Source: an uncultured Acidobacteriaceae bacterium
GTDB taxonomy: Bacteria > Acidobacteriota > Terriglobia > Terriglobales > Acidobacteriaceae
Reading direction: 5' to 3'
Length of the DNA stretch: 64,000 nucleotides
Assembly: GCA_963816705.1 (NCBI GenBank)
Contig: CAWFLZ010000010.1
Span: forward strand, 153,157 to 217,156
Numbering within the stretch: position 1 is the stretch's first letter; every line of letters starts with the position of its first letter. Below, in pieces: positions 3,397 through 59,154 of the stretch. The position numbers and the translations under genes were made by a program. The notes beneath the pieces were generated by a model that was not told the DNA's origin, searched no databases, and was given only the letters and a program-made list of their open reading frames with translations.

Positions 3397-4149
3397 ATGA
3401 TTGCCGGCAGGGATACCTCTTTGCTGGAGCTGTGCAGCTTGATTCGCTCCGACGCAGAGTTTTCGTCGGCGATCCTGAAGATTGCCAATTCTCCGCTGGT
3501 CGCGTTTTCAAAGAACATCACCAGCGTGTTGCAGGCCTCGATGCTGCTGGGTTTTCGCCGGCTGAAGGGGGTAGTGGTTACGGTGGGACTAAGGGAATAC
3601 CTGAATGCGCCGTTTACGCCGCTGATGCAGTCGTGCTGGCGGCACAGCGTGGCGTGCGCTTTGATTGCGGAACGGGCGGCGACATGGAGCAAACTCGACC
3701 GGGACTTTGCATATACTGCCGGGATATTGCATGACATCGGCCGGGTGGCGATGGTGTCGACGATGCCGGATGCCTATGCGCGCGTCGTGGAGAATGATGC
3801 AGATCAGCCGCGGGATCTGCTGGCGAGGGAACGGGAGTTATTCGGGGTCGACCACTCCGAAGCCGGGGCCGCGATCGTGCGGGCTTGGAATCTTCCTGGA
3901 GCTTTTCTGGAGATCACGTCGGGCCACCACGGCGAGGGAAGGCGATGCGCAGGCACGGCCTCGGTGATCGCGCCCAGTTGCCTGCTGGCGGATGTCCTCG
4001 GTTTTCGCGTGGCAGAGTATCGCGGGCTGCGCAGCTATGCTGACATCATAAAGACTTTTCCGGCGGCCACTTGGGAGCAGTTTCCGGCGGAGCCGGAAAA
4101 GTTGGTAACCGAGATCACCGACGAGATTCGCGTGATTGAAGCGGTCTGA
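3397..4149 (+). CDS. HDOD-domain (HD-related output domain) signalling protein
   Basis: 250 aa with an HDOD signature (LKIANSPL..., GILHDIGRVAM). The true start may lie upstream of 3397: the in-frame upstream sequence FPTIALKALQ looks like the HDOD N-terminus, but there is no canonical start codon before the TAG at 3328-3330. Confidence 0.75.
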   Translation: MIAGRDTSLLELCSLIRSDAEFSSAILKIANSPLVAFSKNITSVLQASMLLGFRRLKGVVVTVGLREYLNAPFTPLMQSCWRHSVACALIAERAATWSKLDRDFAYTAGILHDIGRVAMVSTMPDAYARVVENDADQPRDLLARERELFGVDHSEAGAAIVRAWNLPGAFLEITSGHHGEGRRCAGTASVIAPSCLLADVLGFRVAEYRGLRSYADIIKTFPAATWEQFPAEPEKLVTEITDEIRVIEAV

Positions 4150-9575: not shown

Positions 9576-10078
9576 CCGCCCGGCAAGAGGCGGCGCGAAT
9601 TCACCTTATGCAACTCGCACGGCAAAGCCTCTGGAAAGCCTTCCCAATATCATGGGCGATAGAGAGGTCAATCAAGAGAATGCCGCCCAACTTTCTCAGG
9701 CAGCGCTACGCAACCTCATGCCGCATGATCTCCCCGGACGCGGGAACAACCGCAGCCACCGAGGAATCGAGCTGCAATTTCATGCTCCTGCGCATCTTCA
9801 GCAGTTTGCCGGACTCTTTAAGGCCATATCCGCAAATCTTGATAGCGTCGTCACCCAACCACCGATCATTAACATAATCACGGTTGACATAACCCCTCGC
9901 TGTTTGACGCTAGCGGCCTCGGCGATGAGGCTTCTACCGACCCGCCTTTAGGCGCCCTACAAGATGAGATGTTGCATCAGGCCGCTGGAAACGTCCATGG
10001 AGGGCGTCTGAATTCGGTATGAATTGATCTGAATATGCCCAGCTGGCCACTCTTAAGCGGCGATGTGCGAGCGAATCG

Positions 10079-10810
10079 CTACCGCGACTGTTCGTCTTTG
10101 TGCCGCAGCCACTCGATGAACATCTGCTCCTTCGGTTTGTCGTAGGCCATGAGCAGGTGGCGGATGCTGCGTCCGCTGACGAAGTGGCAGACTTCTTCGG
10201 CCAGGTTCTTGGCGTGGTCGCCGGCGCGCTCGAGCGATTGCGTCATGAAGATGATTTGCAGGCTGGCGCGGCGTTCGAGGTTTTCGGGATTTTCGATGTG
10301 GCGCAGAAAGATCAGGTTGCGCAAGCGATCCATCTCGGCGTCGGCGCGCAGCACTTCGATGGCTTTCTTGACGTCTCGCTGGGAAAAAGAATGGCCCACG
10401 TCGGCCAGCATTTTTTCCAGAATGGTCGCCATGTGAGTCAGGTCGCGCGCATCCTGCGGATCGATCTGCGCCCCGGCGGCCTGAGCGCTGGTGGCAAAAC
10501 TCAGCAGCAAGTCACCGATGCGCTCGAGGCCGATCATGAGCTTCATGCAGGCCAGCAAGTGGCCGGTTTCCTCCGGCGGAGCTCGGGTGATGATCCGGGT
10601 CACATCGGAGTCGACTTCGAGGTCGATGGCGTCGAGATCTTTTTCGCACTGCCGGATGGCATTCAGGCGTGACATGGAGCCGGTGGCAATTCCCTCGGCG
10701 GCGATGGCGGCGGCTTGGCGCGCCAGTTCACACGCTTCCACGGTGCGCTTGACAAGGTCAGCGCAGTCCGGTTCGGAAGGCGTTTTCATGCTGGCTGTGC
10801 TCATAGGCAA
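10079..10810 (-). CDS. phoU: Phosphate-specific transport system accessory protein PhoU
   Basis: 243 aa, two PhoU repeats (ERIGD, ERAGDHAKN). Confidence 0.9.
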   Translation of the reverse strand: MPMSTASMKTPSEPDCADLVKRTVEACELARQAAAIAAEGIATGSMSRLNAIRQCEKDLDAIDLEVDSDVTRIITRAPPEETGHLLACMKLMIGLERIGDLLLSFATSAQAAGAQIDPQDARDLTHMATILEKMLADVGHSFSQRDVKKAIEVLRADAEMDRLRNLIFLRHIENPENLERRASLQIIFMTQSLERAGDHAKNLAEEVCHFVSGRSIRHLLMAYDKPKEQMFIEWLRHKDEQSR

Positions 10811-11101
10811 AACCGCCCACCCATTAGATGCCAGACTTTCCCGGAGGACGCCCGGTTTCCATTTCTCGGGTTCTTAATTCAAAGTGTGACACACACACCC
10901 ACGAAAGCATAATCCCCGTTGCCGCGAGGCAAGTTAAGAGACGGTGAATTTCAGGTCGTCGAATCGGCAATTACACCCGCAGGTGACCGGCAGGCGATCG
11001 TCAGCGACTGAACTCGGCGCGTTTTTCCCTGTTGCAAAACCCTCGAAATGATCGGGTCTCAACTATATCGCTCATCGGGCTCCGCGGTTCAGTGCCGGGC
11101 A

Positions 11102-12980
11102 CTACGCCGCATCCCCCTGCGAAGCAGGCAGGACGAACAGGAACGTCGAGCCGTGATTCAGTTCGCTTTCCGCGCGGATGGTCCCGCCGTGCGCGAACAT
11201 GATGTGCTTGGCAATGGCGAGGCCAAGTCCCGTGCCTCCCGATTCGCGGGAGCGCGCCTTGTCGACGCGGTAGAACCGTTCGAAGAGCCGCGGCACGTGC
11301 TCGGACGAGATGCCGGGACCGAAATCGCGGACGTAGAACTCGACGGCGCCAGCGCTCGAACTGGAATCCGAAGACTCCTTTACAGCCGCTGGGCTCGGTG
11401 CGGTTTCAACCGCGGTGACACTGGATGTGCCCCCGCCCGCCGCTGCGCTCGCTGCCCCCGCGGTTGCCGCAACTGAACCAGAAGCCAACGGCACGCCGGG
11501 TGACGGCCGCGCTCCGAGAATGATTTTCTTTCCCGACGCCGCATACTTCAGAGCGTTCTCAATCAGGTTGGAAAATACCTGGTGGATCGCTTCCCGATCG
11601 GCGTTTACGTTCGCGTCCGCTGCCGCGTTTTCGACGACGAGCTCCACTCCGTAGGAGCGGGCGACTTCGCGAAAACTTTCGAGCGCATCCTGAAGCAGTT
11701 CCTCCGTGCTGACTCTCTGAATATCAAATCTCTGTTCGCCCGATTCGACGCGCGCGAGCGTTAGCAGATCCTCAGTCAGCCGCGCCATGCGGGCGGCATT
11801 CTTGCGGATGATCTCCAGAAAATCGCGCACGTGATTGTCGCTGACCCCACTGTCGAGCAGCGTCTCGGTATATCCCTGAATGGAAGTCAGAGGAGTGCGC
11901 AGTTCGTGGGAAACGTTGGCGATGAAATCGCGGCGCGTTTTTTCCATGCGCTCGGTTTCGGTAAGGTCGCGCAGCACGGCGACCACGCCGCCTCCGGGCA
12001 TGGGCGCGGCTGTCACGTCGAAGGTGCGTCCGGCAGTGATGGTAATCGCGCGCGCCGAGGTCACGACCTGATCGCGCGCCGCTTCCTGAACGGCAGCCAG
12101 GAAATCCGGGTCGCGGACGCTATCGATCAGCGGCGCATCGAGACGAGGATAGCGGCGCAGCAGACGCGCCATGCCCCGGTTAGCCCATTGCACGCGTCCA
12201 TCCGCGCCCACCGCGAGCACCGCGTCCTGCATGCTGTTGAGGAGCGTTTCCAGTTCGTGCTGGCTGGTTTGCAGGCGGGCGAAGCTCTCTTCCACGCGGC
12301 GCGCCGTTTTGTCGAGTGCGGCCGCAACTTGCCCGATCTCATCGCTGGAAGTCGCTGCGATTCGGGCGGTCAGGTCGCCGGCCGCGATGCGCTCGGCAAA
12401 ATTTACGATGCGCTTCAGCCGCCGTCCGCAGACGTTGAGAAGTGACTGCCGCAATTACGACCGCGAACGGCGAACGCTATCAGCGATCCCCATAACAACG
12501 CCTTTGCCAGCGGGCGATCGGTGGTTTCAATTTCGGGCAGCGGATAGGCCAGCCGCACCGCGCCTCCGGAAACCGGCGCGGCCACATACAAGAAAGCGAC
12601 ACCCAGTTGTGGCTCTTGCGTTCATCCACTCCCACCGAGCCGCCGAGCGCGGCCGCGAACTCTTTGCGATGTGCTTGATTTTCCATCGTGCTGGCATCGG
12701 CTTCAGAGTCGGCCAGCACCTTGCCCGGTCGGATCGATGACGGTGGCCCGGGCTCCCGCTGCCTGACCCTCCTGCGAAGTGATGTCGGCCAGCGAATGCT
12801 GGCGGTCGGCCTCGACGCGATAGGCAAACATCAGCGTCTTCTGCTTTGAGGTTGCGCTCGATCTGCTCGTGCAGAGTGTGCTGCCAGACGTTGCGCACAG
12901 TCCATTGAAGAGTGATGGCGGTGACGCGCAATCACGACCAGGAACACAACCATCAACTTGAAGAAGATGCGAGGTCTCAA
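11102..12980 (-). pseudogene. phoR: PhoR-like sensor histidine kinase (TM-sensor-TM-HAMP-PAS-HisKA-HATPase); the N-terminal sensor region is broken by five or more 1-bp indels
   Basis: 11102..12454 is an intact HAMP-PAS-HisKA (SHELRTPL)-HATPase ORF. Upstream at 12455..12980 there are TM1 (MVVFLVVIA), a PhoR-type periplasmic fold (VIDPTGKVLADSEADASTMENQAHRKEFAAALGG..VGVDERKS...VAFLYVAAPVSGGAVRLAYPL) and TM2 (LLWGSLIAFAV), spread over three frames (ORFs 12480..12827 and 12527..12931). Confidence 0.85.
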
Positions 12981-13679
12981 CGCGGAACCTCGAAGCGGTA
13001 GCCGGCTCCGCGGACCGTCTTCAGGTAGCGCGGATTCTCGGGATCGGGCTCGATTTTTTCGCGAATACGCCGCACATAGACGTCGACCGACCGTGGAGTG
13101 ACATAGGCCGTATCGCGCCAGACGGAATCAAGCAATTGGTCGCGCGTAAAAACGCGACCGGCGTGGCGCATGAAGTAATCAAGCAGCCGGAATTCGGTGG
13201 CAGTAGTCGGCACCTGCTTGCCCCGAACGGTCAAGGTCATGGCCGAAGGATCGATGTGAACGTCTTCGATCTTTGTAGGCAAAAGTGGCAACGGCCGCTC
13301 GAATCGACGCATGACCGCTTTCACGCGGGCCACAAGTTCGCGCGGACTAAACGGCTTGGGGATGTAGTCATCCGCGCCCAGTTCGAGCCCCAGGATGCGA
13401 TCGGCCTCGCCGCCCTTTGGCCGTCAGGAAAATTACGGGAACAGACGCGAGCGCGATCGACTGGCGGATCTGGCGGCAGAGCTCAAGCCCATCTTTTCCA
13501 GGCACCATGATGTCGAGCAGAAAGAGCGCAGGGCGCTGCCGCTCGGCATCGGACACGACCAGGTTCCCGGTCGAATAGAGCCGCACATTAAAGCCGGCGC
13601 CTTCCAGGTGATGGCGCACCAGGCGCGAAATATCCGGATCGTCTTCCACGACGAAGAGTGTTGGTTTCACGGGCACCAT
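12977..13679 (-). pseudogene. phoB: OmpR/PhoB-family response regulator, receiver and winged-helix domains separated by a 1-bp insertion
   Basis: The receiver domain ORF is 13368..13679 (FVVEDDPDISRL...LDIMVPGKDG...IFLTAKG) and the trans_reg_C ORF is 12977..13333. An extra G near 13414 (aaaggGcggcgag) breaks ...[26 protein letters not shown].... Confidence 0.85.
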
Positions 13680-51820: not shown

Positions 51821-53191
51821 TTGAGTACTGCCAAACAACACGCTACCAATATCGTGCGCGCACTGCGCGAGCGCGGGTATCAGGCCTATTTCGCAGGCGG
51901 ATGCGTCCGCGACTTGCTGCTGGGCCGCGAGCCTGCTGATTACGACGTCGCTACCGACGCAACTCCGCAGCAGGTCATGCAGATCTTTCCTCGAACCTTT
52001 GCTGTCGGGGTGCAGTTTGGGGTGGTGCTGGTTCCGGAGAAACCGGCAACCACGGAGGACACAGAGGAACAGGGAGGAAAGGCAACGGCTGTTGAAGTCG
52101 CGACCTTTCGTTGCGACATCGGCTACTCCGATGGGCGACATCCCGATGAGGTGCGATTCACCAAGGATCCTCGCGAGGATGTGCAGCGGCGCGATTTCAC
52201 TATCAACGGCATGTTGCTTGATCCGCTGGTGTCCGACGCGACGAAGGATAACGTGCTCGATTTCGTCGGGGGACGCGAGGACCTGAAGGCTGGCATCGTT
52301 CGCGCTATCGGAGAGCCTTCGCGACGGTTTGCGGAAGACAAGCTGCGCATGTTGCGGGCTGTGCGTTTCGCGGCGCGGTTTGATTACAGGATCGATCCGG
52401 CGACTTTCTCGGCGATCCAGCAACTGGCGCCGCAGATTCATCAGGTCTCGCAGGAGCGGGTGCGCGAAGAGCTGACCAAGATGCTCACTGAAGGCAGCGC
52501 GCGACGCGCATTTTTGCTGCTTGATGAGAGCGGGTTGCTGCGCGAAGTTTTGCCCGAGATTTCGGCGATGAAGGGCGTGGAGCAGCCTCCGCAGTTTCAT
52601 CCCGAGGGGGACGTTTTTGTACATACATTGCTCCTGCTTGAAAAATTGCCGGCGGGCTCGTCGAAGACGCTGACATGGGGAGCGCTGCTGCATGATGTGG
52701 GCAAGCCGGCCACGTTTCGGGTTGCGCCGGATCGCATTCGATTCGACGGGCATGTCGACGTCGGCGTGAAGATGGCTGCCGAAATTTGCCGCCGCTTGCG
52801 ATTTTCGAACGACGAGACGGAACAGATTCTGGCGCTGGTCGACCATCACATGCGCTTTGCTCAGGTGCGGCAGATGAACGAATCGACGCTCAAGAAATTT
52901 CTTCGGCTGCCGCAATTTGATGAGCACCTGGAACTGCATCGCATGGATGTGCTCTCGAGCAACGGGATTCTCTCCGGATACGAATATGCGCGAGAGCGAT
53001 TGCAGTCGATGGCGCCGGAGGCGATGCGTCCGCAGCCGCTGGTTACGGGCAACGATTTGATTGCGGCCGGGTATGAGCCGGGGCCGCGGTTCACGGAAAT
53101 TCTGGACGCGGTCGAGGACGCGCAGCTCGAAGGACGCATTGCTTCGCGAGAGGCTGCGATGGAGTACGTGCTCCACGAATTCCCTGCGTAG
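51821..53191 (+). CDS. cca: CCA-adding tRNA nucleotidyltransferase (PolyA_pol head plus HD domain)
   Basis: 456 aa. GGCVRDLLLGREPADYDVAT and RRDFTING (nucleotidyltransferase), with HD-domain HD..H motifs in the C-terminal half. Confidence 0.9.
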   Translation: MSTAKQHATNIVRALRERGYQAYFAGGCVRDLLLGREPADYDVATDATPQQVMQIFPRTFAVGVQFGVVLVPEKPATTEDTEEQGGKATAVEVATFRCDIGYSDGRHPDEVRFTKDPREDVQRRDFTINGMLLDPLVSDATKDNVLDFVGGREDLKAGIVRAIGEPSRRFAEDKLRMLRAVRFAARFDYRIDPATFSAIQQLAPQIHQVSQERVREELTKMLTEGSARRAFLLLDESGLLREVLPEISAMKGVEQPPQFHPEGDVFVHTLLLLEKLPAGSSKTLTWGALLHDVGKPATFRVAPDRIRFDGHVDVGVKMAAEICRRLRFSNDETEQILALVDHHMRFAQVRQMNESTLKKFLRLPQFDEHLELHRMDVLSSNGILSGYEYARERLQSMAPEAMRPQPLVTGNDLIAAGYEPGPRFTEILDAVEDAQLEGRIASREAAMEYVLHEFPA

Positions 53192-53384
53192 ATTTCGACG
53201 CTTTTGCGACATTCTCTTTTTTGCGGGAAGTGTTTGATTCTGTTGAATTTGTTGGCGAAATTCAGCAAAATGTGTACCCCCTCCCCCCTATCATTTTTAG
53301 TTAAAGTGTTGATAAATATGTACTTACACTCAAAGTATTCAAGAATAAAGAGTTAGCCCCTAAACCCGGGCTGAAAATAGTTTT

Positions 53385-53436
53385 GGGGCAGCTTCGAGAA
53401 CCGTCCTGGTTGGCGGACGCACCTCGGAGCTGCCCC
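53385..53436 (+). terminator. Hairpin downstream of cca (14-bp stem with one mismatch)
   Basis: ggggcagcttcgag ... ctcggagctgcccc. It follows the AT-rich spacer 53200..53380 and has no strong T-run. Confidence 0.3.
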
Positions 53437-53523
53437 ATTCAGAGCTCGATTGTTGCATGCGGCAGATTAGAAGTCTGTGACGGCGCGCACTGGCTGATTG
53501 TGATGAAAAAGGTTTTGGTCTGA

Positions 53524-53703
53524 TACGCTCGCGGCATCCGGCAAAAACCGGTGAACGTCCTGTCTGTCCCCGTATTTTCCGTCCCCGTATTTTCCCACGA
53601 GGTACGCGGACGGCAGACGGTCGAGGAGTTCGTGCGCCTGGAAGCGGCCCACGACTTGAACCATCTTCGGCAGATCGACCGCACCTTGGGTGGGTGCATG
53701 TAG
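53524..53703 (+). pseudogene. 3'-terminal fragment of a DinB/YfiT-like (HxxxH..GQI) gene, copy 1 of a direct repeat, containing a 15-bp perfect tandem duplication
   Basis: It reads ...VPVFSVPVFSHEVRGRQTVEEFVRLEAAHDLNHLRQIDRTLGGCM and then stops. The tandem duplication gtccccgtattttcc x2 is at 53566..53595. About 90% identical to 54690..54812. Confidence 0.4.
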
Positions 53704-53726
53704 TGGTAGGGCGGGGATGTTCTTTT

Positions 53727-54146
53727 TCACCTCGCGATTCTCTTCCCGCCTGCGGCAAAACCAGTCTTCCGTTTGCCGCCGCCAAATGTCTGACGCTTTT
53801 TATCGTCCCTGAGGCGGACAGCCGTGGGCGTAGAAGAGCCGACAGCAGCGGCGAACGCGGCGGGATTCAGCGCAGTGAGCACGGCAGCGGGATTCTTGTC
53901 GATGACAGTGAGCAAAGTGCGAGCCGGAGCTTCTGGGCTCCTTCGCCCGCCCTCCCAGTGCTTGATAGCGTCAAGGCTGAATCCGAACGTGTTGGAGAAT
54001 CTGGCTTGTGTCATGCCAAGGCGATTTCGGATCGCTTTCACGTCAACCTCCTCGGGCACATGCGCCTTGAATCCTTCTTGCTCCCCAGCAAGGAAAGCCT
54101 CAACGTCGTTCAGGCCATTCATCATCTGCGCGAATTGCGTTTTCAT
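53727..54146 (-). CDS. XRE-family HTH antitoxin (HigA/DUF4415-like) of a RelE/HigB-like TA pair
   Basis: 139 aa. HTH around IRNRLGMTQARFSNTFGFSLDAIKHWEGGRRSP, with a C-terminal basic tail. Its start abuts the toxin stop. Confidence 0.7.
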   Translation of the reverse strand: MKTQFAQMMNGLNDVEAFLAGEQEGFKAHVPEEVDVKAIRNRLGMTQARFSNTFGFSLDAIKHWEGGRRSPEAPARTLLTVIDKNPAAVLTALNPAAFAAAVGSSTPTAVRLRDDKKRQTFGGGKRKTGFAAGGKRIAR

Positions 54147-54161
54147 GCTATCTCCCTGGGT

Positions 54162-54529
54162 TCAGAAAATGCCCTCAAAAATGCTATCGGCCCGTTTCCT
54201 GAGTGTGTTGCGCTCTGCCATGGACAGATTTTCTTTCTCATTCTTCGGAAAAACCGCAATGAGAAAAACCGGAAATCTCTGGTTGCGCCAGATATACACA
54301 ACCCGGGCCCCGCCGCTTTTCCCCATCCCTTTGCGTGCGACTTGGACCTTTTGCGTGCGACTCGGACCTTTCGAAACCCGCCCGTTCCACGGATCACGTC
54401 TCCACGCTCCGGGTCAGCCGCAACCAGTGCCACGATGTCAGCACGCTCCTCCTCGCTAAAGAGCCTGTTGGCAATCGCGAGGTAAGTAGGCGTTTCGACA
54501 ACCGTCTGCACAATTCTCTTGTACTCCAT
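54162..54529 (-). pseudogene. RelE/HigB-superfamily toxin (GKSGGxRViY type) inactivated by a 20-bp tandem duplication
   Basis: N-terminal frame MEYKRIVQTVVETPTYLAIANRLF...GGFRKVRVARK. Downstream frame GMGKSGGARVVYIWRNQRFPVFLIAVFPKNEKENLSMAERNTLRKRADSIFEGIF. The two are joined if one copy of ttgcgtgcgacttggacctt (54331..54350) / ttgcgtgcgactcggacctt (54351..54370) is removed. Confidence 0.7.
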
Positions 54530-54595
54530 TGGACACCATGAGTCAAGTGAATTGTGTGCCATTGGACACTAATGGTTTAGGAGCGCTTGGGTTAG

Positions 54596-54811
54596 GCGCA
54601 GCAAGATGCGAGCCTTTCGGCAGCGGTCTTTCGGACGCTGCGCGAGAGCAACCTGCGACTATTGGAGTCGGTCCCGCGCGCACGGTGGGTGGAGTGCTAT
54701 GGGGTCCACGAGGTGCGCGGTCGGCAAACGGTCGAGGAGTTCGTCCGCATGGAAGCGGCACACGACTTGAACCATCTTCGGCAAATCGACTGCATCTTGG
54801 GTGGGCGTAGG
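54596..54811 (+). pseudogene. C-terminal fragment (about 72 aa) of a DinB/YfiT-like gene, copy 2 of the direct repeat
   Basis: ...LRESNLRLLESVPRARWVECYGVHEVRGRQTVEEFVRMEAAHDLNHLRQIDCILGGRR and then stops. There is no N-terminal half, because the toxin gene occupies the upstream position on the opposite strand. Confidence 0.45.
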
Positions 54812-55065
54812 TAGTGGTAGCCGTTTGGCTGCCAACGCCTCGGTTCCCACGGCCGCCAATTGTGTAGGGGCAAAACCTCCGCTGCCGACGGTATTGCCGG
54901 GCCACTTCTCAAAAAGCGTGAGAAGTGGCGCACCCCCAGTTATTACGGGTTCGAGGCCTGAGAAGTGGCCCACCCGCCTCTTGCAAAAAACGCAAGGACG
55001 GGTCGCCCTCAATGGCAACGGTGCAAGCAAAAATCGCTAAGGTGGACCACCCCCAGGTTTCTCCG

Positions 55066-55623
55066 TCACTCTTTCAAGTAATGAAGCGCAACACCTCCTG
55101 ATTTAGAAATCTTCGATTCGACAAGTTTCAGTTGTAGGTTCTCCGGCAGATTGACACCATCAAACAACCGTCTTCCTTTCCCAACGATGACTGGCGAAAT
55201 GGCCACACGATATTCGTCAATCAGGCCAAGCTCCATCAGTTGTGAAGGAAGATCTACACCGCCGACCCAAATATTTTTGCCCGGTTCTTGCTTCAATCTA
55301 AGTATTTCGTCGCGAAGGTTCGAGCGAACGATTCTCGTATTTTTATCTTCAACGCGGTCCAATGATCGTGAAAAAACAATCTTTTCGAGGGAATCAAATG
55401 CCAGGGCAAATTCGTTCCCCTCCTTTGTCTCGGACTGGTTTTTTGCGATATCAGGCCAATAAGGAACCATCAATTGGTAGGTTTTACGCCCATAGACGAG
55501 CAGGCCAGCATCCTCTCGCAAGAGGCGCGTGTAGTGTTCCATTGCCGCTTCATCAGGAACGTGTTTGGTGTGGTCGCAGCAGCCGTCAAGGGTAAGGTTG
55601 ATGGCGAAGACTACATTTCTCAT
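55066..55623 (-). CDS. Dihydrofolate reductase-like (RibD C-terminal domain, YwjB/YyaP family) protein
   Basis: 185 aa. MRNVVFAINLTLDGC...VYGRKTY...IWVGGVDL is the RibD_C/DHFR-like signature. Confidence 0.75.
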   Translation of the reverse strand: MRNVVFAINLTLDGCCDHTKHVPDEAAMEHYTRLLREDAGLLVYGRKTYQLMVPYWPDIAKNQSETKEGNEFALAFDSLEKIVFSRSLDRVEDKNTRIVRSNLRDEILRLKQEPGKNIWVGGVDLPSQLMELGLIDEYRVAISPVIVGKGRRLFDGVNLPENLQLKLVESKISKSGGVALHYLKE

Positions 55624-55784
55624 TTGATCCCCTTTTTAGAGTTTTGCTTTTCGAGTAGATCAATGACATTGGCTCATCTCCGGCGCGGCTTCCATCGTCA
55701 TGATCAACGGGAGGCTGAAGGCCGGGAAATGCGGGGACGACGCGACGCTCACGTCATTTTCGGCGAAGCCCTGGGCCCTCCGGC

Positions 55785-58700
55785 CTAAGTCAATACAAAT
55801 CGCAGAAGTTCTGGAAACTTCTTTTCCGCGGATAGGACACGGATCTGCGCGGGTGATTCGAAACCTATTCCTCGTTCTGATCCCGGTCTTGCGAGTTGAC
55901 TGCGGCGGGATCGGCTGGGATTGGTTTTTGCAGATCGATCGGCGGGCTGGCCGGCTTTCTTCAGCTCCTCATTCAGTTGCGGAACATCTTTTGATTTGAG
56001 TTGAGACCACGCTGCCAACTGTTCATCGAGCGCCTTTTCCACTTCTCCGAACATTGAGACCTCCTGCGTGGTGGGGGCGGCGTCGGCGGTATCGAGTTGG
56101 GCTAGCATCGTGCCCAGGCCTCCATTGAGGCGGGCCAGGCTGCGGCCTTCGGGCGTGCTCAGGAAGCGAGAGCCATAGCCGCCTTCGCTGCCTTCGATGG
56201 CCGCGGCTTTGGCGTCGAGACTCTTGATGGATTCAGCCAGCGGGGATGGCGGATTCTTCGCGCTCGCGGCTTTCAGTTGCGAGCGCAGGCTGCGCACCTG
56301 TTGCAGGGCTTCATGGTCGCGGTGGAGGGCGTCGGCGATTTTGCGGTCGAGGTCGAACTGGCGGCGGAGGTCTCTCGGGCAAGGTTTTCACGCGCGGGTC
56401 CATGTGGATTTCGAGGGGCTGCGTGTAGGTTTTGCCATCGGCCGTTAGCTCCAAGCTGTACTTGCCCGGCAAAACCTTGGCGCCCTCCGGGTAGAGCGGA
56501 GTGTCGTGAGGGATCGCGGAGATCGGGAAGTCGCGACTGAGCAGGTCGGGAACTGGATAGGTCAGGTCCCAGACGAAGCGGTGCATGCCGGGTGCGGCAG
56601 ACAGTATTCGCGGCGGGCGCACCCAGTACATCGGGACGTTGAAGTCTTTGGGATTAATCGGCTCGGGCTTGTCCGTGCTGGAGAAGCGGCGTACTAGCTT
56701 GCCGCTTGCATCTAGATTTCAATGACGACTGCGGGAGTCGCGTCCTTGAGCCAGTAGTCGATCATTGCGCCATCGGGCGGATTCTGGCCGGCGGGCTCTT
56801 CGGGTGGAAGCGGCGTGTCGGGATTGTTGTCGCGGCGCAGGCGATAGGTCAACGGCGGCTTGAACAAGTGGGCGGGGCTCTGCGGCAATCTTCGCGTCGA
56901 GCTGGCGCAGCGGCGTGATGTTGTCCAAAATCCAGAACGACCGGCCGTGCGTGCCTACTACCACGTCGTCGTTGTGGACGACCAGGTCACGAATCGAAGT
57001 GGGCGGCAGATTCAGCTTGAGCGATTGCCAGTGGTCGCCGTCGTCGAATGAAACATAGACGCTGCGCTCGGTTCCGGCGAAGAGCAGTCCTTTGCGTTCG
57101 GGGTCTTCGCGGACGGTGTTGACCGGTTCGTTATCGGGCAGGCCGGTCACGATCTTCTGCCAGGTCTTGCCGCCGTCGTGGGTGCGGTAGATATATGGAT
57201 GCAGGTCGTCGAGGCGGAAACGATTGACTGCGGCGTAGGCGGTTGCGGTATCGAAGTGCGACGCGTCCATCTGCGCTACCTTGCTCCAGGGCGTCAGATC
57301 AGGCGGAGTTACGTTTTGCCAGTTCTTGCCGGCGTCATGAGTTACTTGAATCAGGCCGTCGTCGGTGCCGACCCAGATCAGGTTGGCGTCTTTGGGCGAG
57401 GGTGCGATGGAATAAATCACGCCGCGATGCTTGCCTTTGGCGGGGTCGTCGTCAACGAACGCGCCTAGCGATGGAGGGACGCCGGCGTCGTCTTTTGTTA
57501 GATCGCGCGTCAGGTCTGGGCTGATGATTTGCCAGCTGTTGCCGCCATCGCGCGTCACGAACAAGACGTTCGAACCCAGATAGAGCGCGTGCTGATCGAC
57601 GGGCGAGAAAATCAGCGGCGCGGTGCGGTTGAAGCGGTACTGGCCGGTGCGGAGGACTACTGGGCCAACCTCGCGCGTCTGGCCGGTGTTGCGGTCGAAC
57701 ACGGTAACTTTGCCGCCGTAGATCAGATTCGGATGCAGCGGATCGGGCGCGACGTAGCCGTATTCTTCTACGCCGAGAGTGGTCCAGTCGCGAAAAGTGA
57801 TTTCGCCGAAGTCGCTGCGGCTGGCGGTGCCGACCGAGCCGCTTTCCTGCTGCCCACCGTAGACCCAATAGGGAAACTGGTTGTCGGTGATCACGTGATA
57901 GAACTGCGCTGTCGGCTGGTTATACCAACTGCTCCAGTGTCTGCCGCCGTTCACGCTGATGGTTGCGCCCTGGTCGACGGCGATGGCGATGATGTCGGGA
58001 TTTTCGGGATTGATCCAGATGGTGTGATAGTCGTCGCCGCCGGGCGCGCCCTTGATGGCGGTGAAATTTTTGCCGGCGTCGGTGGAACGGTAGGTGGACG
58101 TGTTGGCCACGTAAATGACGTCTTTGTTTCTGGGATCGACGCGGACGCAACCAAAGTCGTCGCCGCGGCCGTAGATGCGCTCTTCGCTGTTGACCTGCTG
58201 CCAGGATTCGCCGGCGTCGTCGGAGCGGTAGATGCCGCTGCCTAGCTTTGCATTCGGCTTCGTTACGTTGGACGTCGTTACGTTAACCCATGCATACATG
58301 CGTTCGGGATCGCTGGGGGAGATGGTTTGGCCGATGCGGCCGATGCCTTCGGCTTCGCCGGGCAATCCTTTGGTGAGTTGACGCCAGTTGTTGCCGCCGT
58401 CGGTCGATTTGTAGAGACCGCTGCCGGGGCCGTTGTAGGCGCCGCCGGTCGTCCAGGGCGGACGGCGCGAGGACCACATGCTGGCGAAGATTACCTGCGA
58501 GTTGCGAGGATCGAACGTCAGATCCATGCCGCCGACGTTCTCGTCTTTGTAGAGAACCTTTGTGAAGGTCTGGCCGCCGTCGAGCGAGCGGAAGATGCCG
58601 CGCTCGGCGTTGGGGCCGTAGGGATGGCCTTGGGCGGCGACGAAGAGGCGGTTGGGATCTTTGGGATCGACGATGATGGAGGCGATTTGCTGGGCGTCGC

Positions 58701-59154
58701 GCAGGCCGAGGTGTTGCCAGGTGCGGCCGGCATCGGTTGATTTGTAGATGCCGTCGCCGACGGAGAGATCGGGACGGCGCAGGCCTTCGCCGCTGCCTAC
58801 ATAAATGATGTCGGGATTGGAGGGCGCGACGGCGACGGCGCCGATGGAGCCGGTGGGCTGGTCGTCAAAGATTGGGTTCCAGGTACGGCCGAAGTCGGTG
58901 GACTTCCAGACTCCGCCGTTGTTTGGGGCCATGTAGAAAACGTTTTGATGGCCGGGGATGCCGGAGATGGAGACGGTGCGGCCCGCACGGAAGGGGCCGA
59001 TCATGCGCCAGTGGAGATCCTGATACAGCGAGGGATCGAACTGTTGAGCGCGAACGGGAGCGATGCAGATTCCGCCGATGAATGTGAGGACGATGAGAAG
59101 AAGCCGAATCTTGATCCAGAGTTGCGATTGTCGTTTCAAGGATGTACCCCCCAC
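55785..59154 (-). pseudogene. Large BNR/Asp-box repeat beta-propeller protein (sortilin/VPS10-like, GH74-like), C-terminal third fragmented by three or more indels
   Basis: ORF 56719..59154 has a signal peptide and more than 10 SxDxGxTW motifs. Its C-terminus continues in other frames through ORF 56311..56631 (MYWVRPPRIL...) and ORF 55785..56297. Shifts lie near 56712, 56380 and 55930. An alternative frame gives a plausible natural end, ...KKAGQPPIDLQKPIPADPAAVNSQDRDQNEE. Confidence 0.75.

Follow-up and report, generated by a model that had tools for sequence, protein, structure and literature searches.

The stretch of DNA analyzed here (the window) comprises 64 kb from an uncultured soil acidobacterium (Terriglobales), and our subject is a 2.6-kb islet at positions 53192-55784, lying between the gene of the CCA-adding tRNA nucleotidyltransferase (cca) and a BNR/sortilin-type gene. 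From left to right the islet holds an AT-rich intergenic region, a dispersed repeat (element E), half of a palindromic element (M), a first remnant of a DinB-like gene, a type II toxin-antitoxin (TA) module on the minus strand, a second DinB remnant, a cluster of palindromes of the repetitive extragenic palindrome (REP) type, and a RibD_C gene. Positions and supporting evidence are collected in Table 1. Related contigs and loci that were compared with the window are designated by L-numbers (L001, L002 and so on).

Table 1. Features of the islet and of the two genes that bound it, numbered as in the 64-kb window.
Feature	Position	Strand	Description	Evidence or remarks
cca (CCA-adding tRNA nucleotidyltransferase)	51821..53191	+	left anchor of the variable gap, conserved	Pfam PolyA_pol, PolyA_pol_RNAbd, HD, tRNA_NucTran2_2
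AT-rich cca 3' intergenic region	53192..53383	+	terminator-like hairpin 53353-53374	GC content and L002 match
Element E, dispersed repeat	53384..53513	+		recurs with 70-88% identity between cca and BNR in six other species (L006, L015, L016, L022, L026, L027)
Element M, half copy	53550..53594	+	GTCCYGTCTGTCCCC plus T-rich tail	abuts truncated 5' end of remnant 1
DinB remnant 1	53595..53709	+	codons 136-170, stop 53701-53703, plus 6 nt	collinear with L091, L089, L178
HigB-2/HigA-2-like type II TA module	53710..54580	-		edges by L091 versus L089, L090, L082; junction sequences
Antitoxin gene	53727..54146	-	intact, 139 aa, helix-turn-helix (HTH) protein (MqsA C-terminal / HigA-2 / NadS-like)	Pfam, PDB, NCBIfam
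Toxin pseudogene	54162..54529	-	HigB-2 / PF06296 RelE family	frameshift after about codon 60
20-bp tandem duplication	54330..54371		2.1 copies, 95% match; toxin-inactivating	tandem repeat scan
Two GTGTCCAATGG(C/A) boxes, 33 bp apart	54519..54569	-	one box over the toxin start codon	direct repeat
DinB remnant 2	54580..54843	+	codons 94-170 (77 codons), stop 54812-54814, 29-nt downstream flank	91-96% nucleotide identity to about 90 DinB copies
REP-like palindrome cluster	54899..55056		GCCACTTCTCA...TGAGAAGTGGC type	repeat and folding scans
RibD_C module	55054..55628	-	gene 55066-55623, 185 aa, intact	Pfam RibD_C, E = 3e-17
BNR/sortilin-type gene	55785..59154	-	right anchor of the variable gap, conserved	synteny in 27 related loci

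The most conspicuous feature of the islet is a direct repeat of 115 nt (53595-53709 and 54706-54820) with 90% identity between its copies. As the first-pass annotation of this DNA had described, both copies encode the C-terminus of a DinB_2/YfiT-like protein in the plus frame, and the minus-strand TA pair lies between them. Further copies of this repeat, or of elements E, M and REP, were not found in the window. The second copy had been credited with about 72 codons and no N-terminal half. The half is indeed missing, but the homology extends over 77 codons with an in-frame TAG at 54593-54595, and continues into 29 nt of downstream flank. No DinB N-terminal half is present anywhere in the window, and the four-helix bundle of about 170 aa is incomplete in both remnants (35 codons in the first; 77, with the internal TAG, in the second). 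At the protein level, remnant 1 shares 94% identity with residues 136-170 of a DinB_2 protein of 170 aa. Remnant 2 is 93% identical to residues 94-169 of the 170-aa DinB_2 protein of L091, which itself scores 56.4 bits on PF12867. Remnant 2 (54596-54811) matches positions 68-128 of the 128 positions of this profile (E = 1e-4, 23.1 bits against a cut-off of 24.8). The family is thus DinB_2 by its profile, while the YfiT equivalog score of 45 bits, against a cut-off of 160, indicates membership of the superfamily only.

How are the two remnants related to each other? The stretch 53595-54581 is collinear with L091, L089 and L178 from the DinB end across both TA genes to the region upstream of the toxin. 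A complete DinB_2 gene of 170 codons, without a second copy, lies convergent to the antitoxin in L089 and L091; in L178-L180 the DinB in this place is cut at codon 117. The junction of remnant 1 with the TA module is common to all these loci (L089, L091, L178-L180), and remnant 1 is therefore the stump of a DinB gene travelling with the TA module. Its 5' 135 codons are gone and the break abuts the half copy of M. A perfect 15-bp tandem duplication had been assigned to this copy. The doublet is real (53566-53595), but it lies just outside the DinB homology and forms the tail of element M; the same doubled tail occurs in L099 and L126. The homology of remnant 2 to most of the approximately 90 TA-less DinB copies continues to 54843, and the canonical flank CCGTTTGGCTGCCAACGCCTCGG of TA-less DinB genes is kept. 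Because this flank is retained, remnant 2 derives from a TA-less DinB gene copy.

The differences between the remnants agree with separate histories. Over their 35 shared codons we counted seven synonymous and five non-synonymous changes, with 0.37 synonymous substitutions per synonymous site (dS) and a ratio of non-synonymous to synonymous rates (dN/dS) of about 0.18. Among intact DinB genes mean dS is 0.11 and maximum dS is 0.38. Since the differences are mostly synonymous, they speak for two distinct gene copies that diverged while functional, and not for a duplication on the spot. The first-pass annotation had named two distinct full-length paralogues as the finding that would overturn its reading, and remnants of two distinct gene copies come to the same in spirit.

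The TA-upstream region and DinB codon 94 (approximately) are joined at 54580/54581, about 53 bp inside the TA module. The join lies within an imperfect microhomology of about 12 nt, GAGCGCT-TGG on the DinB side and GAACGCTCTTGG on the TA-upstream side, and the BLAST segments overlap by 2-8 nt at 54580-54587. These sequences point to an illegitimate join between the TA module and remnant 2.

The TA module itself is about 975 bp long, with its edge 6 nt past the DinB stop codon; most DinB loci have no such module, and the window copy is about 53 bp short on the toxin-upstream side. In L090 and L172 it stands without DinB, and in L100 its orientation is reversed. Judged by these contexts, the TA module is a discrete, horizontally mobile unit. 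Scans of viral contigs with DinB and with the antitoxin gave no relatives, and so no sign of phage carriage. One further difference was seen at the left edge of the module. Between the DinB stop and the antitoxin end, L089, L090 and L091 have a 45-nt REP hairpin (CCTAAATTTCGCG...CGCGAAATTTAGG), which is precisely missing in the window at 53709/53710, between GGG repeats. Because of this absence, the spacing from the DinB stop to the antitoxin is 23 nt in the window versus 69 nt in relatives.

An antitoxin-toxin pair had been reported here, and it is present, but the earlier reading overlooked that the toxin is broken. The 20-bp tandem duplication moves the C-terminal half into another frame, and the toxin gene is therefore a pseudogene. 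When one 20-bp unit was removed in silico, a toxin open reading frame (ORF) of 115 aa was restored. The restored protein scores 40.4 bits on PF06296, above the curated cut-off of 27, and matches the Vibrio cholerae HigB-2 structures 8a0x_C (E = 3.7e-17) and 5ja8 (E about 4e-17); its identity with the L091 toxin, which is intact, is 94%. In an alignment of six loci the 20-bp insertion is confined to the window lineage, being absent in L091, L100, L099 and L089. Other toxins have other lesions, a 14-bp insertion in L089 (L089:3613-3968) and the loss of about 320 bp from within the gene in L090 (L090:5923-5982), and L091 and L100 have an intact toxin gene. Intact antitoxins are seen in each of the five aligned loci that cover this gene; the sequence of L099 breaks off within the toxin. 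Loss of the toxin with the antitoxin kept is thus recurrent in this alignment, and the lesions are independent.

The antitoxin stays somewhat below the family thresholds. It has 28.6 bits for MqsA_antitoxin in Pfam (cut-off 30) and 50.6 bits for NadS in NCBIfam (cut-off 60); NCBIfam MqsA and Pfam HTH_31, HTH_19 and HTH_3 are under their cut-offs as well. Structure matches were 2ppx (E = 4e-8), MqsA (7e-5) and HigA-2 (3e-3), and the position and gene order, directly downstream of the toxin, fit a HigA-2/MqsA-type antitoxin. The family is very abundant in Acidobacteriota metagenomes: 1440 homologues were retrieved from metagenomes at E <= 1e-10, the top 120 of them being at least 80% identical (80-94%). 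The columns of the GTGTCCAATGG boxes are invariant in the six aligned loci, and these boxes are probably the operator/promoter of the module. The stop codon TGA of the frameshifted toxin ORF overlaps the antitoxin start codon (ATGA, 54143-54146). Translation of the antitoxin could still be coupled to the dead toxin ORF, and the overlap could also be a coincidence. Just the autoregulated HTH antitoxin and the RibD_C gene are probably still functional in the islet.

It is useful to compare these remnants with DinB genes elsewhere. More than 528 metagenome stretches encode close relatives of this DinB, and the context statistics below refer to the best 80 of them (L092-L171, e.g., L095:5621-6236). 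Their proteins are 91-99% identical and their genes about 95% identical in nucleotides, with mean dN 0.018, mean dS 0.11 and dN/dS 0.16. Nucleotide homology is limited to about 615 bp, the upstream breakpoints are nested, and many contigs break inside DinB. Clustering of the 300-bp flanks beyond this homology gave at least 26 groups upstream and at least 44 downstream, unrelated to one another. This DinB gene is under purifying selection and has spread recently among many contexts; both properties would make the gene effective as a homology anchor. Its behavior is that of a promiscuous module without a visible mobility gene. A candidate 15-nt terminal inverted repeat around DinB in L115 has no counterpart in L101 or L110 and was dismissed as chance.

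Broken copies of the gene occur in many variants, with breakpoints at codons 56, 87, 94, 112, 117, 136 and 138. In L082 a full DinB is followed by cupin and cytochrome P460 cargo and then by DinB codons 117-170 with the canonical flank. The order in L099 is toxin, a 294-aa ORF, DinB codons 56-170, flank, M element, a 396-aa ORF and RibD_C, the distance from TA to DinB being 1.3 kb. Two DinB fragments in unrelated contexts, L082:10026 and L178:3662, start at the same codon 117 (CCTGCGACTG), with an M arm adjoining one of them and a REP-like sequence adjoining the other. The coincidence could reflect a breakage hot-spot inside DinB.

The site of the islet was compared through cca. Retrieval anchored on this gene gave 80 species-level relatives, all Terriglobales or Acidobacteriota metagenome-assembled genomes, and the tsaD-cca order is syntenic in most of them. 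The BNR/sortilin gene is convergent to cca, as in the window, in 27 relatives, and the gap between the two genes ranges there from 74 to 5177 bp. Seven species (L003, L005, L017, L020, L024, L029 and L036) have a nearly empty gap. In others the gap is filled with unrelated cargo: an AAA_21/AbiEii-like ATPase, TIR, a GmrSD-like nuclease, a kinase, an aldehyde dehydrogenase, a CMAS methyltransferase. With gap sizes and contents of this kind, the islet occupies a hypervariable insertion hot-spot. DinB, the TA pair and RibD_C are absent from the gap in all 27 syntenic relatives. An intact dinB-like gene occupying the site without the TA pair, which the first-pass annotation would have expected in relatives, was found in none of the 27. 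In L009 the same hot-spot contains an intact cca (10001-11359), two cargo genes and, 2.1 kb downstream, a diverged 3' fragment of cca with its stop (13444-13589).

We consider that the islet is a decaying mosaic of small horizontal modules, made by homology-anchored illegitimate recombination with displacement of a 3' end and then subject to decay; we would give this reading a probability of roughly 0.6. The parts of the mosaic are the TA module, DinB remnant 1, DinB remnant 2 with its own flank, the RibD_C gene and dispersed palindromic repeats between them. The anatomy, the pseudogene state of the toxin, the borders of the modules, the junctions (shared or not) and the variability of the hot-spot are direct observations, and from these we infer the following order and mechanism of events. 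Homologous pairing would have brought an incoming DinB-TA segment together with a resident DinB gene at a point before codon 94. At its other end the cargo, here the TA-upstream region, would have been joined to codon 94 of the resident DinB by an illegitimate event guided by microhomology, and the 3' end of the resident gene would have been displaced downstream as an orphan fragment. One event of this kind is the simplest way to obtain the order DinB, TA, join and DinB codons 94-170 with their native flank. An equivalent route would be a microhomology deletion within an older array of the same modules. Decay may then have removed the 5' 135 codons of the upstream DinB at a half palindrome, introduced the nonsense mutation in the downstream DinB fragment, and frameshifted the toxin by the 20-bp tandem duplication.

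Displacement of a 3' end should leave an orphan with its native flank, a donor-type junction at the other copy and microhomology at the illegitimate joint. In the window remnant 2 keeps its native flank to 54843, remnant 1 has the TA junction of the donor type, equal to that of L089, L091 and L178, and the joint has the microhomology described above. The architecture of gene, cargo and 3' fragment in L082 (DinB) and L009 (cca) fits this process and therefore counts in its favor. Origin of the remnants from two genes and the illegitimate join hold on either route, whether the join is primary or comes from a later deletion.

Several points weigh against this reading. The left homologous crossover is invisible, the first 135 codons of the upstream copy being gone. 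The array in L099 indicates that a later microhomology deletion, instead of the primary join, may have made the window junction. The reading presupposes natural competence, or another route of DNA uptake, in the host. Since the 3' end served as seed for the survey of DinB fragments, an excess of 3' over 5' fragments cannot be stated. The dN/dS between the remnants comes from 35 codons only. In addition, palindromes abut two independent breakpoints, in the window and in L082, which hints at a process more specific than random illegitimate recombination.

The palindromes and the RibD_C module must be considered in this connection. Complete M elements fold into hairpins about 80 nt long, GGGGACAGNCGGGA...TCCCGTCTGTCCCC and then a run of T, with folding energies of -36 to -51 kcal/mol (examples are L121:2440-2560, L100:2700-2815 and 3640-3760, and L092:155-270). 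The M element looks like a bidirectional terminator. In DinB/TA loci its core motif has about 18 times the density seen in cca-anchored loci; half M elements stand at truncated DinB ends in the window and in L082, and M is often found at module borders. Element E begins with a hairpin at 53384-53437 (15+5 bp, -39.3 kcal/mol, z = -5.9) and has a conserved box, TCATCACAA...GTGCGC.CC.TCACAGAC on the opposite strand, visible by eye also in L099; it has no match in Rfam. In the REP-like cluster, the local TGAGAAGTGGC repeats and the perfect hairpin that were noticed at first reading are both confirmed: the motif occurs three times at 54901-54969, against an expectation of 1.02 for the entire window with up to one mismatch, and the hairpin with its perfect 11-bp stem has -21 kcal/mol and z = -4.2. 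Similar REP-like hairpins are present in L007, L008, L089, L090 and L095, and the family is enriched in DinB/TA loci. Nucleotide homology of the RibD_C module (79-81%) is confined to 55054-55628, about 575 bp, in L172 and L178-L180, where it lies near TA in other arrangements. In L172-L177 the TA module is tail to tail with RibD_C, and the two are separated in L178-L180 by a DinB stump and the gene of a Y1 (IS200/RAYT-like) transposase. RibD_C is also found downstream of the truncated DinB in L099. A gene similar to Y1_Tnp is present in the gap of L012, and tblastn detected no Y1/RAYT transposase in the window.

These observations raise the question of dedicated cassette shuffling, in which M/REP palindromes, perhaps together with a RAYT-type Y1 transposase or an unrecognised recombinase, would mobilise DinB, TA and RibD_C. 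The homology of the modules is tightly bounded (about 615, 975 and 575 bp, respectively), several permutations exist (TA-DinB, TA-RibD_C, TA-Y1_Tnp-RibD_C, DinB...RibD_C), Y1_Tnp genes occur in L178-L180 with the similar gene in L012, and the 18-fold enriched M palindromes are placed at module borders and at two DinB breakpoints. We nevertheless regard such a system as improbable for this islet: the upstream breakpoints of DinB are nested instead of fixed, there is no recombinase in the islet and no Y1 transposase in the window, and RAYTs are known to move REPINs, not genes. No attC-like R''/R' consensus was recognized by eye, and none of the inspected loci contains intI. An integron was for this reason rejected, having neither intI in the inspected loci nor attC-like cores. 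Sequences of the attC type RYYYAAC...GTTRRRY were not seen at the DinB flank or in the M/REP palindromes by inspection, with no dedicated attC model run.

Another origin would be tandem duplication in situ of a unit composed of the DinB 3' part and TA, with later loss of the second TA and of the 5' part of the first DinB. Small tandem duplications are frequent at this locus, and the order 6609->5572 followed by 6735->6495 (in L091 coordinates) resembles the junction of a tandem duplication. Remnant 2 should then be followed by a second TA; its canonical TA-less flank argues against this, as does the dS of 0.37 between the copies. At least three further events would be needed, and we find this origin quite unlikely.

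The layout of gene, cargo and 3' fragment recurs in L082 and in the window, and metagenomes contain many orphan DinB 3' fragments. Could the DinB 3' end be an attB site, with islets carrying their own copy of the 3' end as in tRNA-gene islands and leaving repeats like attL and attR? Such site-specific integration implies a constant crossover, whereas the fragments start at seven codon positions between 56 and 138. No integrase or recombinase is present in the 2.6-kb islet or beside the TA/DinB modules in the inspected loci. The variable starts and the absence of a nearby recombinase therefore speak against a site-specific process. Moreover, the junction falls inside the cargo, and the at least 26 upstream and 44 downstream contexts of DinB have nested upstream breakpoints. 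In our opinion site-specific integration is very unlikely. A tRNA/tmRNA scan of the whole window was negative, so the islet is not a tRNA-linked island.

The first-pass annotation itself saw in this locus the scar of a TA cassette inserted into, or recombined with, a dinB-like gene, with the target end (about 115 bp) duplicated. A mobile module and a recombination scar remain from this proposal, and the direct repeats do flank TA exactly. The duplication of the target end does not survive. The left junction, with TA 6 nt beyond the DinB stop, is shared with loci that have a single full-length DinB, and the right junction lies inside the TA module. Remnant 2 has a TA-less flank and reaches 126 nt further 5' than remnant 1 (241 versus 115 nt). 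The repeats are just 90% identical, with mostly synonymous differences (dS 0.37), although the sister strain (L001, see below) matches this region exactly. DinB is missing at this site in the syntenic relatives. Transposition leaves short identical repeats at both ends of an element, which were not found here, and transposases are not known to make target duplications of 115-241 bp. Transposition or insertion of the cassette into an intact dinB-like gene at this site, with duplication of its end, is accordingly hardly credible. An assembly artefact, that is, a chimeric metagenome join through DinB (which is high-copy in soil metagenomes and breaks many contigs), has a next to negligible chance, because the independent L001 assembly matches 53000-55700 exactly, a third assembly has the same antitoxin with a 128-aa ORF upstream, and the junctions are unique sequences and not switches inside a repeat.

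The contig L001 (European Nucleotide Archive, ERZ25039558) belongs to a sister strain with 99.15% identity over 20 kb, and its exact match over 53000-55700 includes both tandem duplications. The 128-aa ORF of the third assembly has the length of the frameshifted toxin ORF. Between 48000 and 56000, a region of about 8 kb with tsaD, cca and the islet, the window and L001 differ by 0-2 mismatches per kb, compared with 6-35 per kb on either side. This low-divergence block points to recent recombination or a sweep. A recent sweep of the islet alone, suggested by the exact match, was rejected, since the islet is only a part of the block (48-56 kb). The BNR/sortilin gene is a single ORF of 1072 aa in L001 and is split into several ORFs in the window by 1-nt indels at 56375, 56715 and 56882. 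All 19 indels between the two sequences over 20 kb are 1 or 2 nt long. This pattern suggests long-read consensus errors in one assembly, and not real pseudogenisation of the BNR gene.

The AT-rich stretch before the islet genes had been taken for part of the junction. The low GC content is real (0.395 at 53200-53399, versus about 0.60 around it), but the role as a junction is not supported: L002, the nearest species, has a counterpart of about 88% identity in the same place, which continues to the end of its contig, and the stretch is therefore native cca 3' intergenic DNA. This contig stops 35 nt before element E. A scan of 53000-55900 with Rfam at E up to 1 gave just sub-threshold chance matches (nos_TCE and sR12), with no known RNA to explain the AT-rich stretch or the hairpins. 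A sigma-70 promoter scan gave no matches.

Taken alone, this locus combines a pseudogenised TA module and remnants of genes, a common sight in bacterial flexible regions; it is an ordinary decaying mosaic of known kinds (a HigBA-2-like TA module and orphan 3' fragments), and only the broader pattern of module shuffling in Acidobacteriota has some potential for novelty. It may serve as a worked example in which orphan 3' fragments flanking a cargo are interpreted as traces of homology-anchored illegitimate recombination rather than of a duplicated insertion site. The three independent toxin lesions beside intact antitoxins illustrate the decay of TA modules. Ultra-conserved small modules that are reshuffled in uncultured soil Acidobacteriota bear on gene exchange in a phylum with few recognised mobile elements. 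As a speculation, for which we would not claim much likelihood, the DinB gene with its 170 codons may be a portable homology anchor in soil Acidobacteriota. Together with the M/REP palindromes it may drive recombinase-independent or RAYT-assisted cassette exchange, which shuffles TA, RibD_C and small genes into hot-spots and leaves orphan 3' fragments as footprints.

Among known systems, HigBA-2 of V. cholerae, in which HigB-2 is a ribosome-dependent mRNase and HigA-2 its antitoxin, is the closest to the TA module. Both have the toxin-first order and an HTH antitoxin; the restored toxin matches HigB-2 and PF06296, and the HTH of the window antitoxin matches HigA-2 and the C-terminal domain of MqsA. 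In contrast to HigBA-2, the window toxin is frameshifted. With its 139 aa the window antitoxin is the longer one; it ends in a tail rich in Ala, Gly and Lys and is below the family cut-offs. The window system is located on the chromosome of an acidobacterium, not in a Vibrio superintegron.

Small, tightly bounded single-gene modules that are reshuffled among contexts and mixed with TA modules resemble integron cassettes, including the TA cassettes of chromosomal integrons. The modules described here differ in occurring in both orientations and with nested borders, with no intI found and no attC R''/R' recognised. The short dispersed imperfect palindromes between genes, and Y1_Tnp adjacent to them in L178-L180, are similar to REP/REPIN sequences with their RAYT. 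The window itself has no RAYT, and M, E and REKW-type hairpins are at most putative RAYT substrates. Hot-spots of variable genes between conserved core genes, either defence islands or integration sites, have been described in the pangenomes of E. coli and Pseudomonas. The conserved flanks cca and BNR, with a gap that is empty or variably filled (including TIR, GmrSD and the AbiEii-like ATPase), correspond to this picture, although the fillers of our type are very small (0.07-5 kb), lack integrases and belong to an uncultured acidobacterium.

The nearest parallel for the proposed mechanism is homology-facilitated illegitimate recombination, or C-terminal displacement, which was proposed for the effector-immunity arrays of the V. 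cholerae type VI secretion system and for orphan arrays of rhs and contact-dependent inhibition loci, where displaced 3' ends accumulate downstream (PMC5361080). In our case a small enzyme gene, or cca in L009, takes the place of the polymorphic toxin as anchor, a TA module replaces the immunity gene as cargo, and the orphan is under no selection for retention and is decaying; the mechanism is also deduced here from its products. In both cases, a conserved gene would serve as the anchor, the incoming DNA would bring a new 3' end with cargo, and an orphan with its native flank would be left behind a joint with microhomology, with no need for a dedicated recombinase.

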